2,461 nt of DNA from a virus. Its lineage: Duplodnaviria > Heunggongvirae > Uroviricota > Caudoviricetes. The position numbers and the translations under genes were made by a program. The DNA is taken from IMG/VR virus record IMGVR_UViG_2671180770_000028; one strand, 5' to 3'. The notes beneath the pieces were generated by a model. It saw nothing but the letters and a program-made list of their open reading frames with translations. It was not told where the DNA came from and did not search any database. This document shows, one piece after another, positions 212 to 2,461 of this stretch. The stretch's first letter is position 1. Every line of letters begins with the position of its first letter.

Positions 212-283
212 ATGCGTAAACTTTATGCCGCCATTTTGTCCGCAGCCATTTGTCTGGCCGTATCCGGTGCGCCTGCATGGGCG
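212..283 (+). other. Signal peptide of Lom (24 aa, predicted signal peptidase I cleavage after A-W-A)
   Basis: Positively charged N-terminus (MRK), a hydrophobic core (LYAAILSAAICLAV) and an AxA-type cleavage motif (AWA then S). Read directly from the translation. Confidence 0.75.
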
Positions 284-811
284 TCTGAGCAGCAGGCCAC
301 GCTGAGCGCGGGGTATCTTCATGCCCGGACGAACGCTCCCGGCAGCGATAATCTTAACGGGATTAACGTGAAATACCGTTATGAGTTTACGGACACGCTG
401 GGAATGGTGACGTCATTCAGCTATGCAGGAGACAAGAATCGCCAGCTGACCCGTTACAGCGATACCCGCTGGCATGAAGATTCCGTGCGTAACCGCTGGT
501 TCAGCGTAATGGCGGGGCCGTCTGTGCGCGTGAATGAATGGTTCAGCGCGTATGCGATGGCGGGTGTGGCTTACAGCCGTGTGTCGACTTTCTCCGGGGA
601 TTATCTTCGCGTAACTGACAACAAGGGGAAAATGCACGATGTGCTGACCGGAAGTGATGACGGTCGCCACAGCAACACGTCTCTGGCGTGGGGGGCTGGC
701 GTGCAGTTTAACCCGACCGAATCCGTGGCCATTGATATTGCTTATGAAGGCTCCGGCAGTGGTGACTGGCGCACTGACGGTTTCATCGTGGGGGTCGGTT
801 ATAAGTTCTGA
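212..811 (+). CDS. lom: Lom-like outer membrane protein (Ail/Lom/OmpX/PagC family 8-stranded beta-barrel), prophage lysogenic-conversion gene
   Basis: 199-aa ORF with a GAGAGG Shine-Dalgarno at 201-206, 5 nt before the ATG. The N-terminus is a typical Sec signal peptide (MRKLYAAILSAAICLAVSGAPAWA, then SEQQ). The C-terminus ...VAIDIAYEGSGSGDWRTDGFIVGVGYKF matches the lambda Lom C-terminus as I recall it, ending in the aromatic terminal residue (KF) typical of outer-membrane beta-barrels. The internal GINVKYRYE and SVMAGP..SAYAMAGVA motifs are also Lom/Ail-like. Confidence 0.93.
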   Translation: MRKLYAAILSAAICLAVSGAPAWASEQQATLSAGYLHARTNAPGSDNLNGINVKYRYEFTDTLGMVTSFSYAGDKNRQLTRYSDTRWHEDSVRNRWFSVMAGPSVRVNEWFSAYAMAGVAYSRVSTFSGDYLRVTDNKGKMHDVLTGSDDGRHSNTSLAWGAGVQFNPTESVAIDIAYEGSGSGDWRTDGFIVGVGYKF

Positions 812-837: not shown

Positions 838-865
838 AGCCCGCCGGTTCAGGCGGGCTTTTTTT
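838..865 (+). terminator. Rho-independent terminator between lom and the tail fiber gene: 8-bp stem, 6-nt loop, T7 tail
   Basis: Seen directly: 838-845 AGCCCGCC, loop 846-851 GGTTCA, 852-859 GGCGGGCT (exact complement), with a T run at 859-865. It lies 27 nt after the lom stop and 12 nt before the fiber ATG. Confidence 0.8.
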
Positions 866-876
866 GTGGGGTGAAT

Positions 877-1206
877 ATGGCAGTAAAGATTTCAGGTGTA
901 CTGAAAGACGGCACAGGAAAACCGGTAGAGAATTGCACCATTCAACTGAAAGCCAGACGGACCAGCAGCACGGTGGTGGTGAACACGGTGGCCTCTGAAA
1001 ATCCGGATGAAGCCGGTCGTTACAGCATGGACGTTGAGTACGGGCAGTACAGCGTTATTCTGTTGGTGGAAGGATTCCCGCCATCCCATGCCGGGACCAT
1101 CACCGTGTATGAAGATTCTCAACCGGGGACGCTGAATGATTTTCTCGGTGCCATGTCGGAGGATGACGTCCGGCCGGAGGCACTGCGTCGTTTTGAACAA
1201 ATGGTG
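877..1206 (+). other. Conserved N-terminal tail-attachment region of the side tail fiber (lambda Stf-like, about 110 aa)
   Basis: Residues 1 to about 110 (MAVKISGVLKDG...GRYSMDVEYGQYSVIL...GFPPSHAGTITVYEDSQPGTLNDFL...) track the lambda Stf N-terminus closely from memory. Similarity falls away once the Ala-rich stalk begins. Confidence 0.7.
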
Positions 1207-2190
1207 GAAGAGGCAGCGCGTCATGCCGGGGAGGCGAAGAAGAATGCCGGAGAGGCAGAGACGTCCGCGAGGAATGCCGGCATATCAGCCAGTCAGGCAG
1301 AAAAGAGCGCTGCACATGCTGACACTTCAGCAGGATATGCATCGGAGTCAGCCCGGCAGGCGGCAGAAAGTGCAGCCTCAGCAAAGCAGTCAGAGGAGGC
1401 GTCCTCGTCCTCGGCTTCTGCGGCCGCTCAAAAAGCCAGTGAGTCATCACAAAGTGCAGCAGAAGCTGAATTGTCAAGAAAGACGGCAGAAAGTGCAGCC
1501 GGTAATGCAGCCAGGGATGCAACGACCGCAACAGAAAAAGCCCGGGAGTCAGCAGAAAGCGCACAGTCAGCGGAACAAAGCAGGATAGCGGCGGAAGAAG
1601 CCGTAAACCGCATCCCCACCGTGGTGGGGCCTCCCGGGCCAAAGGGGGAACAGGGGCCCGCTGGCCCTCAGGGGCCGAAGGGAGATAAAGGAGAGCGTGG
1701 TGACACCGGCCCTGTCGGGGCAACCGGCGAACGGGGACCGGCAGGTGATGCTGGTCCGGCAGGCCCGCAGGGGCCGAAAGGTGACAGGGGAGAGCGGGGA
1801 GAGGCCGGTCTGACGGGAAATGCAGGTCCACAGGGTCCAAAGGGAGATACCGGTGCGGCAGGCCCGGCAGGCCCACGGGGACCGAAAGGAGAAACAGGTG
1901 CGGCTGGCCCGGTAGGGGCAACCGGACCTCAGGGGGCGAAGGGCGACCCGGGGGAGACGCAAATACGGTTCCGTATGGGGCCGGGAAACATTATTGAGAC
2001 AAACAGCAATGGCTGGTTCCCGGATACAGATGGCGCACTCATCACCGGACTGACCTTTCTTGACCCCAAAGATGCCACACGGGTTCAGGTTTTTTTTCAG
2101 CATTTGCAGGTCAGGTTTGGTGACGGGCCATGGCAGGATGTTAAGGGGCTGGATGAAGTGGGCAGTGATACAGGCAGAACAGGAGAATGA
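877..2190 (+). CDS. stf: Side tail fiber protein with a collagen-like triple-helix domain: lambda-Stf-like N-terminal region, Ala/Ser/Glu-rich stalk, 37 Gly-X-Y triplets and a short C-terminal globular domain (prophage-fiber C-terminal type)
   Basis: The ORF-track frame is 871..2190. I place the start at ATG 877 because the product then begins MAVKISGVLKDGTGKPVENCTIQLKARR..., which matches the lambda Stf N-terminus as I recall it (MAVKISGVLKDGTGKPV.NCTIQLKA...); GTG 871 would add two residues (MN). A purine-rich GGGG sits at 868-871. The stop is TGA at 2188-2190. The domain layout is read directly from the translation. Confidence 0.9.
   Translation: MAVKISGVLKDGTGKPVENCTIQLKARRTSSTVVVNTVASENPDEAGRYSMDVEYGQYSVILLVEGFPPSHAGTITVYEDSQPGTLNDFLGAMSEDDVRPEALRRFEQMVEEAARHAGEAKKNAGEAETSARNAGISASQAEKSAAHADTSAGYASESARQAAESAASAKQSEEASSSSASAAAQKASESSQSAAEAELSRKTAESAAGNAARDATTATEKARESAESAQSAEQSRIAAEEAVNRIPTVVGPPGPKGEQGPAGPQGPKGDKGERGDTGPVGATGERGPAGDAGPAGPQGPKGDRGERGEAGLTGNAGPQGPKGDTGAAGPAGPRGPKGETGAAGPVGATGPQGAKGDPGETQIRFRMGPGNIIETNSNGWFPDTDGALITGLTFLDPKDATRVQVFFQHLQVRFGDGPWQDVKGLDEVGSDTGRTGE
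1207..1626 (+). other. Low-complexity Ala/Ser/Glu-rich stalk of the fiber (probable alpha-helical or coiled-coil shaft), carrying internal in-frame DNA direct repeats
   Basis: The translation is dominated by A, S, E, Q and K with recurring AESA, SAAEAE and ARESAESAQSAEQS motifs. An exact 17-nt direct repeat CGGCAGAAAGTGCAGCC occurs at 1361-1377 and 1484-1500, both copies encoding A-E-S-A-A in frame. Confidence 0.65.
1627..1959 (+). repeat. Collagen-like repeat region: 37 consecutive uninterrupted Gly-X-Y triplets (111 aa) within the tail fiber CDS
   Basis: The translation GPPGPKGEQGPAGPQGPKGDKGERGDTGPVGATGERGPAGDAGPAGPQGPKGDRGERGEAGLTGNAGPQGPKGDTGAAGPAGPRGPKGETGAAGPVGATGPQGAKGDPGET has Gly at every third position with no break and is rich in Pro at X and in charged K/R/E/D residues. 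The DNA shows a strong 9-nt-scale GGN-CCN periodicity and raised GC content. Confidence 0.92.
1960..2187 (+). other. C-terminal globular domain of the fiber (about 76 aa; prophage tail-fiber C-terminal domain type; candidate distal receptor-binding or trimerisation cap)
   Basis: After the last Gly-X-Y triplet the sequence becomes non-repetitive and aromatic-containing (QIRFRMGPGNIIETNSNGWFPDTDGALITGLTFLDPKDATRVQVFFQHLQVRFGDGPWQDVKGLDEVGSDTGRTGE), consistent with a folded terminal module. The family assignment is from memory of E. coli prophage collagen-like fiber proteins and is not verified. Confidence 0.55.
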
Positions 2191-2191
2191 C

Positions 2192-2461
2192 ATGAACATA
2201 CTAAAAAAACTTATGCAGCGTCTGTGCGGTTGCGGAAAGCATGATGACCGTGAAAACGGGGAGTTACTTACAGCACAGCTGCGGCTGGGACCGGCAGACA
2301 TTCTGGAGTCAGATGAGAATGGCATTATCCCGGAGCAGGCCAGGGTAATCACGCAGGTGGTGATACTGGATGCGGATAAAAAGCAGATACAGTGCGTGGT
2401 AAGACCGCTGCAAATTCTGCGTGCTGACGGGACGTGGGAAAATATTGGCGGGATGAAATAG
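2192..2461 (+). CDS. Small hypothetical protein (89 aa, acidic, no signal peptide or transmembrane segment evident), translationally coupled to the tail fiber gene; function unknown
   Basis: ATG at 2192 follows the fiber stop codon (2188-2190) by 1 nt, and a strong AGGAGA Shine-Dalgarno at 2181-2186 lies inside the last fiber codons, 5 nt upstream. The ORF ends at TAG 2459-2461. Translation: MNILKKLMQRLCGCGKHDDRENGELLTAQLRLGPADILESDENGIIPEQARVITQVVILDADKKQIQCVVRPLQILRADGTWENIGGMK. Alternative in-frame starts exist at 2153 (with AAGGGG 5 nt upstream) and 2138. I do not recognise the protein. Confidence 0.55.
   Translation: MNILKKLMQRLCGCGKHDDRENGELLTAQLRLGPADILESDENGIIPEQARVITQVVILDADKKQIQCVVRPLQILRADGTWENIGGMK

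Follow-up and report, generated by a model that had tools for sequence, protein, structure and literature searches.

The 89-codon open reading frame that closes the window (the whole 2,461-nt stretch of DNA analysed here) is the known stand-alone PfC gene of a tail-fibre module and, in our judgement, held with moderate confidence, a non-essential accessory of that module. It is not a new gene. It is already catalogued in Pfam, PHROGs and RefSeq, and it had been noted and even deleted in the Stx phage Sp5, so that as a discovery it matters little. Its interest lies in the combination of a strongly conserved, fibre-coupled copy of a fibre knob, found with four different fibre architectures, and yet no phenotype in K-12. 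The gene may have a bearing on the adsorption of Stx phages to their natural, O-antigen-bearing hosts.

The small gene and its junction with the fibre gene

The window starts within the tail-tip gene J, of which it holds the last 144 nt. The next gene is lom (212..811, plus strand), which encodes an Ail/Lom outer-membrane protein (Pfam PF06316, E 1.7e-117, in line with the PGAP annotation) and lies directly 5' of the fibre gene. The latter (877..2190, plus strand) specifies a collagen-like side tail fibre of 437 aa with the domain order PfN, coiled coil, collagen, PfC (Pfam PF08400, PF01391 and PF06820). In architecture and length this fibre agrees with the EPclA type described for O157 prophages (Ghosh et al. 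2012, PMC3368898). Its own PfC domain covers residues 363-426 (1963..2154, plus strand; PF06820) and is the paralogue of the domain encoded by the small gene.

Terminator-like hairpins with a T-run were found after J (163-182) and in the intergenic region between lom and the fibre gene (838..859, plus strand; the same positions are 8838-8859 in locus L001). As these two elements bracket lom, the fibre gene and the small ORF must rely on read-through, i.e. antiterminated, late transcription. Both hairpins are GC-rich and end in T-runs, and from its flanks lom itself has the look of an insulated moron.

The small gene occupies 2192..2461 of the plus strand (89 codons and a TAG stop) and is read in the +1 frame relative to the fibre. 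The fibre stop TGA (2188..2190) is followed by a single spacer base, C (2191), and then by the ATG at 2192, and a Shine-Dalgarno sequence AGGAGA (2181..2186, plus strand) is embedded in the final fibre codons, 5 nt 5' of that ATG. These positions agree with those given in an earlier sequence-only reading, which had placed the ORF 1 nt after the fibre stop and had proposed that it is co-transcribed and translationally coupled with the fibre. The proposal is well supported by the conservation of the junction. Of 87 related copies, taken from viral contigs and from annotated records, all have TGA-C-ATG, 82 agree exactly in the longer junction AGAACAGGAGAATGAC plus ATG, and 86 carry an intact small ORF. 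Moreover, pairwise comparison of 56 intact alleles gave a pN/pS of 0.12 for the whole ORF, with the first 27 residues (0.26) less constrained than residues 28-89 (0.045). The identical junctions, the intact copies and the low pN/pS together imply that the small ORF is more than a chance frame, namely a genuine gene on which purifying selection acts strongly, and the concern that it could be spurious is contradicted by the same counts.

The encoded protein has a pI of 5.75, with 13 acidic (D+E) and 12 basic (K+R) residues. Thus, the earlier description as acidic is correct, though marginally so. A GRAVY of -0.27 and a longest hydrophobic stretch of only VITQVVIL are consistent with the stated lack of a signal peptide and of transmembrane segments. 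We considered a Cor-like exclusion lipoprotein, as residues 11-14 (L-C-G-C) resemble a lipobox, but the preceding KKLMQR is not hydrophobic. The idea of a lipoprotein or a metal site at LCGCG was dropped, as the Cys is replaced by Gly in the Salmonella homologues P0184 and P0190.

Two further features of the fibre gene are recorded here. The fibre frame is broken in about 18 of the 87 copies (open frame of at most 354 codons, contig-end cases excluded), in line with the observation by Ghosh et al. that defective EPclA* fibres are numerous; all but one of the same 87 keep the small ORF intact. In addition, long antisense ORFs of 261 and 273 aa (1567-2352 and 1100-1921, minus strand; also 1436-2290, minus strand, in locus L087) cross the collagen repeats and reach into the small ORF, and the phi24B record annotates one such CDS (vb_24B_37c). 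As the pattern of selection favours the forward frame, these antisense ORFs most likely arise as a side effect of the G+C-rich Gly-X-Y repeat.

Family membership, paralogy and predicted structure

Residues 28-89 of the small protein match the complete Pfam profile PF06820 (Phage_fiber_C, 'PfC'; profile positions 1-64 of 64, E 1e-34, 119.2 bits against a cut-off of 25), and the whole protein (1-89 of 89) matches phrog_576, 'tail fiber protein' (E 7e-60, 200 bits). The PGAP/RefSeq product name is likewise 'phage tail fiber C-terminal domain-containing protein'. The profile search that the sequence-only reading had suggested thus returned PfC and tail-fibre families, and its view of the ORF as unrecognised and devoid of a motif does not hold. 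A profile search of NCBIfam with the 89-aa protein gave no match. The Tfa families (Tfa, Caudo_TAP, DUF4376) were absent from the matches in Pfam, NCBIfam and PHROGs at E up to 1, where only PfC and tail-fibre families appeared. The relation to the neighbouring fibre is direct, as the PfC domain of the small ORF is 32% identical to that of the upstream fibre (BLASTP, E 9e-11).

The junction together with the ORF was found in 698 of 5,426 complete E. coli genomes, with a median of 10 and a maximum of 15 copies per genome; an EHEC genome carries some ten copies of the stand-alone PfC gene. The same combination occurs in 296 phage records, mostly of Stx-converting phages. According to protein searches the stand-alone form is restricted to E. 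coli, E. albertii, Citrobacter rodentium and Salmonella enterica (~50-60% identity), and an exhaustive HMMER search of 1.84 billion cluster representatives gave only 59 matches, almost all of them fragments or chimeras of the same family, so that no wider family emerged from it. The exceptions were the repeat proteins P0174, P0179 and P0183, whose likeness to PfC is confined to its C-terminal half and which carry a unit of the form ...VVVLDAD...G.L.VRRADGTW.EI... in tandem. P0179 is a collagen-containing protein of 565 aa with four such units and P0174 has nine matched stretches; the C-terminal hairpin of PfC may be a more widespread fibre repeat unit. A few singleton proteins (P0068, P0091, P0035 and P0015) have the PfC of the small ORF fused to fragments of J (DUF1983), Lom, CII or a tape-measure-like protein, with junctions near ...ADILESDENG. 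These fusions are probably deletions or mis-assemblies in genomes with multiple prophages.

The counterparts in Salmonella prophages provide a view on the age of the arrangement. There, a stand-alone PfC gene of 79 aa overlaps the end of a non-collagen fibre gene that itself ends in PfC. More specifically, the start of the small gene overlaps the fibre end by 14-23 nt, AGGAGG is found upstream, and a similar hairpin and then cargo follow downstream. One of these Salmonella fibres is composed of PfN, Phage_fiber_2 and PfC, and the tail of a second Salmonella fibre is also paired with a small gene. The identity of a fibre PfC to its stand-alone neighbour is 32-35% in every lineage. A comparison of E. 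coli with Salmonella gives about 60% for the stand-alone copies and about 41% for the fibre PfC copies. The duplication is therefore old, and both copies were kept together while the rest of the fibre changed. In one Salmonella prophage (L088) J and the gene for the PfC-tipped fibre are separated by an SGNH/GDSL-lipase-like gene (3193-4551), which may serve the adsorption module as an accessory, either by modifying the O-antigen or as an esterase.

The small protein can be divided into two parts. Residues 1-27 (2192..2272, plus strand) form an N-terminal extension with a predicted helix at residues 3-11, which carries the motif M-x-I-[LF]-K-K, followed by a low-confidence linker. This motif is kept in the Salmonella homologues and Cys14 is not. 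Residues 28-89 (2273..2458, plus strand) form the PfC domain, which is predicted to be all-beta. An AF2 monomer model based on an alignment of E. coli sequences only was discarded (pLDDT 50.6), whereas inclusion of the Salmonella homologues raised the mean pLDDT to 76, with values of 86-92 over residues 31-80, which comprise six beta strands, about 60 for the helix 3-11 and below 50 for the linker 13-24. The conserved PfC residues in the small protein include R31, G33, P34, I37, G44, P47, T54, L59, Q74, G80 and W82. The top fold matches of the model in the PDB were with the tail fibre of phage Mu (8ju3 and 5yvq). In 5yvq, an entry listed as a fibre-chaperone complex, the match is to chain A, and in 8ju3 it is to fibre protein S, not to a chaperone. 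Sequence searches of the PDB, both with the protein and with the family profile, returned nothing meaningful.

Compared with the PfC domains of the EPclA and EPclB fibres (PMC3368898), the small protein thus belongs to the same domain family over the full profile, and its predicted all-beta fold agrees with the CD data for the fibre PfC. It differs in being about 32% identical and free-standing, in having an N-terminal helix and linker of its own, and in lacking both the collagen stalk and the 11-residue C-terminal tail of the fibre.

Orthologues in Stx phages and the possible role of a free knob domain

The stand-alone PfC gene lies directly 3' of a PfC-tipped fibre gene in the window and in every other context inspected; the pairing is without exception. 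Four fibre architectures precede it: EPclA in long-tailed prophages, EPclB in the short-tailed Sepvirinae and the two Salmonella fibre types. In the Sepvirinae Stx phages VT2phi_272, P27, phi24B and VT2-Sakai (Sp5) an EPclB-type fibre gene of 645 aa is followed by one base and then by the 89-codon gene, and the pair is surrounded by the other genes of the virion block, among them more tail genes on the downstream side. ORF68/ECs1229 of Sp5 and the 'hypothetical tail fiber protein' of phi24B (ADN68460; gp59 in a 2026 preprint) are orthologues of the ORF in the window. In fact, the Sp5 protein is identical to that of the window at 83 of 89 residues (93%), with a single difference in the PfC domain. 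All three share the SD-TGA-C-ATG junction after a PfC-tipped collagen-like fibre and a hairpin after the stop. They differ in that the Sp5 and phi24B copies follow the 645-aa EPclB lateral fibre of a short-tailed phage inside the virion block, whereas the copy in the window belongs to a long-tailed lambdoid prophage, where it comes after an EPclA side fibre of 437 aa and no other gene separates it from the cargo. Nothing further was found in the literature on the side fibres of phage lambda_2B8.

The orthologue has been studied directly. In a series of in-frame deletions of late genes in Sp5, Mondal et al. 2016 (PMC5155283) found that the fibre gene ORF67/ECs1228, whose product was located at the tail end by immuno-EM, is essential, whereas ORF68/ECs1229 is not: the deltaORF68 phage still forms plaques and lysogenises on K-12. 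As deltaORF68 is infectious and deltaORF67 is not, the small protein is not a required chaperone under those conditions; a partial helper role stays compatible with the deletion. The sequence-only reading had offered 'fiber accessory or chaperone' as one option, of which the accessory direction stands, while membership of the known chaperone family (Tfa) does not, the orthologue being dispensable where the fibre is essential (PMC5155283).

The likeness to the Tfa group is one of position. Like lambda Tfa, Mu U (TfaMu) and P2 G (Pfam Caudo_TAP), the small ORF lies right after a fibre gene and is co-expressed with it. It is set apart from them by the lack of a Pfam Tfa match and by the dispensability of the orthologue next to an essential fibre. 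The Tfa protein of Mu reportedly remains at the fibre tip, an observation attributed to North et al. in 2019, and we take PDB entry 5yvq to be the Mu fibre-Tfa complex of that same work.

The phi24B preprint (doi 10.64898/2026.04.10.717836) has a bearing on expression. The peptide table of its proteome supplement lists VITQVVILDADKK and ADGTWENIGGMK from gradient-purified virions, with 3 PSMs each; these peptides are identical to residues 52-64 and 78-89 of the window protein. In the same supplement the C-terminal fibre peptide GLDEVGSDTGR reaches 47 PSMs and the fibre as a whole 2,267 counts. The entry carries the remark 'Spike or just gp59?' in the authors' table and is not taken up in their main text. 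The phi24B orthologue is thus translated and co-purifies with virions, although only at a low level, which settles for the orthologue the question of expression that the sequence-only reading had raised. Considering 3 PSMs per peptide against 47 for the fibre C-terminus and 2,267 for the whole fibre, it is unlikely that every fibre bears a stoichiometric cap, and the small-protein peptides could stem from trace contamination.

Taken together, we favour the following scenario. The small gene is an ancient duplicate of the terminal knob domain of the collagen-like fibre, equipped with a short N-terminal helix and linker of its own, and would be transcribed with the fibre gene on the late transcript. 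Ribosomes that finish the fibre would then translate the small ORF via the conserved SD-TGA-C-ATG junction, and free PfC protein would thus be made at the time and place of the fibre's own C-terminal knob. For the fibre copy, as distinct from the small paralogue, SEC-MALLS has characterised PfC as a module for trimerisation and nucleation, by which the collagen stalk is able to refold (Ghosh et al. 2012, PMC3368898). By analogy, the stand-alone PfC may form a small beta-rich trimer as well, and it may act on or with the distal knob of the fibre, either as a transient assembly helper or cap or as a low-copy tip partner.

A more specific version of this scenario, to which we would assign only a small chance, is that the free trimer docks on the PfC knob of the fibre as a trans-acting tip module, in low copy or conditionally retained, and thereby alters the receptor or glycan specificity on natural O-antigen-bearing hosts. 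If it were true, the gene would represent a host-range accessory that is common to long- and short-tailed Stx phages and invisible in K-12 assays. A duplicated fibre-end domain would then serve as its own adaptor, according to a logic unlike that of the unrelated Tfa chaperones.

Mondal et al. suggested that ORF68 constitutes an 'intragenomic reservoir' (PMC5155283), i.e. a spare PfC cassette that could be swapped by recombination with the C-terminal domain of the fibre and so create fibre variants. Rare chimeras do exist: P0150 combines the N-terminus of the small ORF with the PfC of a fibre, and P0066 combines collagen with the PfC of the small ORF, joined at the shared 11-nt word GGGACCGGCAG. 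However, P0150 is a singleton, and P0066 comprises four member sequences, at a contig edge and with an 11-nt microhomology junction. Moreover, the two PfC-coding segments are just 53.9% identical in DNA with a longest in-register exact run of 7 nt, and fibres with a stand-alone-type PfC are essentially absent from the ~300 family members retrieved per search. The selection observed acts at the protein level (pN/pS 0.045), and a cassette would need neither the conserved SD and ATG of its own nor the N-terminal extension. We therefore regard a reservoir role as improbable.

The absence of a phenotype in the Sp5 deletion (PMC5155283), the low abundance in virions and the persistence of intact copies beside the many frame-disrupted fibre genes of defective prophages would also suit a remnant without function, left behind by an old rearrangement of the fibre and carried along with the fibre gene. 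Such a relic is hard to reconcile with a domain pN/pS of 0.045 over 56 alleles and with 86 intact copies out of 87. In addition, E. coli and Salmonella have both kept an intact coupled gene (~60% identity) in spite of the change of fibre type beside it, and we consider a leftover quite improbable.

It could be argued that the small ORF is no independent gene but an alternative C-terminus of the fibre, reached by a +1 shift at or near the fibre stop, which would yield a minor isoform with two tandem PfC domains. Indeed, the +1 frame relative to the fibre, in which the ORF is read, is open from 2060, and skipping one base at the TGA would read ...TGE-D-MNILKK without interruption. Fusion entries (Fusion_6159_FS1/FS2) are part of the MS database of the phi24B authors, who labelled them 'Spike or just gp59?'. 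Against this, the SD and ATG are conserved as an independent start, Salmonella included, where that start overlaps the fibre end by 14-23 nt. No slippery motif is present at the stop, and Mondal et al. saw no frameshift signal either (PMC5155283). The phi24B peptide table contains no junction peptide among the entries covered, versus 47 PSMs for GLDEVGSDTGR. Programmed frameshifting of the lambda G/GT kind involves a slippery site and no independent initiation; the small ORF presents the opposite on both counts. We thus hold a fused isoform to be very unlikely.

A shift further upstream was dropped too. The window has a T8 run at 2090-2097, within the PfC-coding region of the fibre. It originates from an allele-specific GGT-to-GTT change (Gly to Val; RVQVFFQ here, RVQGFFQ in most copies). 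Most alleles read GGT TTT TTT, and a shift at this site would destroy the fibre PfC. One database protein (P0121) is a frameshift fusion that spans the T8 region, in which the frame of the small ORF is open; the run is probably a sequencing- or slippage-prone site and not a programmed signal.

The end of the fibre module

The position of the small gene relative to the variable region of the prophages provides a separate line of evidence. The stop of the ORF is followed by a hairpin, AAAAACCGGAG-TCCGG-CTCCGGTTTTT (-23.4 kcal/mol, z -5.0), at a distance of at most 40 nt in 76 of 82 loci. It was missed by a simple terminator scan, probably because its A/T-extended stem consumes the T-run, and was confirmed by folding. 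Past this hairpin the 82 loci diverge into about 50 different downstream sequences, including nleG-type starts, whereas the small ORF remains near-identical whichever cargo comes next. The next genes in annotated genomes encode NleG7, a kinase and SopA-like effectors or belong to IS elements, and the effector cassettes start about 45-70 nt past the ORF stop. A search of both strands over the 3 kb surrounding the gene revealed no site resembling a sigma-70 promoter. PADLOC-DB, which tests known defence models only, gave 0 families at E up to 1.

The small ORF belongs to the fibre module and is not prophage cargo, considering its place within the virion block of the Sepvirinae, the divergence that sets in only after the hairpin, the lack of a promoter site and the lack of a PADLOC match. 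The stand-alone PfC gene thus marks the true end of the tail-fibre module, and the exchangeable effector region begins past its hairpin. The inspection of downstream neighbourhoods across prophages that had been proposed on the basis of the sequence indeed yielded the hairpin followed by NleG and other variable cargo, but the 'cargo position' assigned to the ORF itself was off by one gene. It is true that lambdoid morons and effector loci (lom, bor, nleG cassettes) occupy the same neighbourhood 3' of the tail fibre genes. The small ORF differs from these in its location on the phage side of the hairpin, in the lack of a promoter-like site and in its homology to a virion domain. Morons are characterised by a promoter and terminator of their own, variable presence and a function unrelated to the virion, whereas this gene is coupled, fibre-homologous and present independently of the cargo.

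The cargo interpretation envisaged in the sequence-only reading, be it a moron, an effector, an exclusion or defence function or the start of a new system, is therefore largely refuted: the ORF is the last gene before the exchangeable region (NleG, kinase, IS elements, SopA-like genes) in long-tailed prophages and its family occurs in T3SS-bearing enterics (E. coli, E. albertii, C. rodentium, Salmonella), but it is a paralogue of a fibre domain without a PADLOC match or promoter-like site, it precedes the conserved hairpin, it lies between virion genes in the Sepvirinae, and it is near-identical irrespective of the cargo that follows.

Two observations concern the boundary itself. In 11 of the 82 loci (L027, at 5040-5185, and L023, L028, L031, L033, L035, L036, L068, L073, L074 and L080) a degenerate second copy of the last ~110 nt of the ORF plus hairpin is found after the first cargo gene, an nleG-like ORF, so that the cargo cassette is flanked by direct repeats of the 3' end of the ORF and its hairpin. 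This repeat looks like a recombination anchor for the exchange or accumulation of effector cassettes. In addition, PGAP annotates a 67-nt pseudogene fragment of a 'tail assembly protein' right after the ORF stop, overlapping the hairpin (10461-10527 in both L001 and L002), which may be the remnant of a tfa-like gene that was once located 3' of the fibre module.
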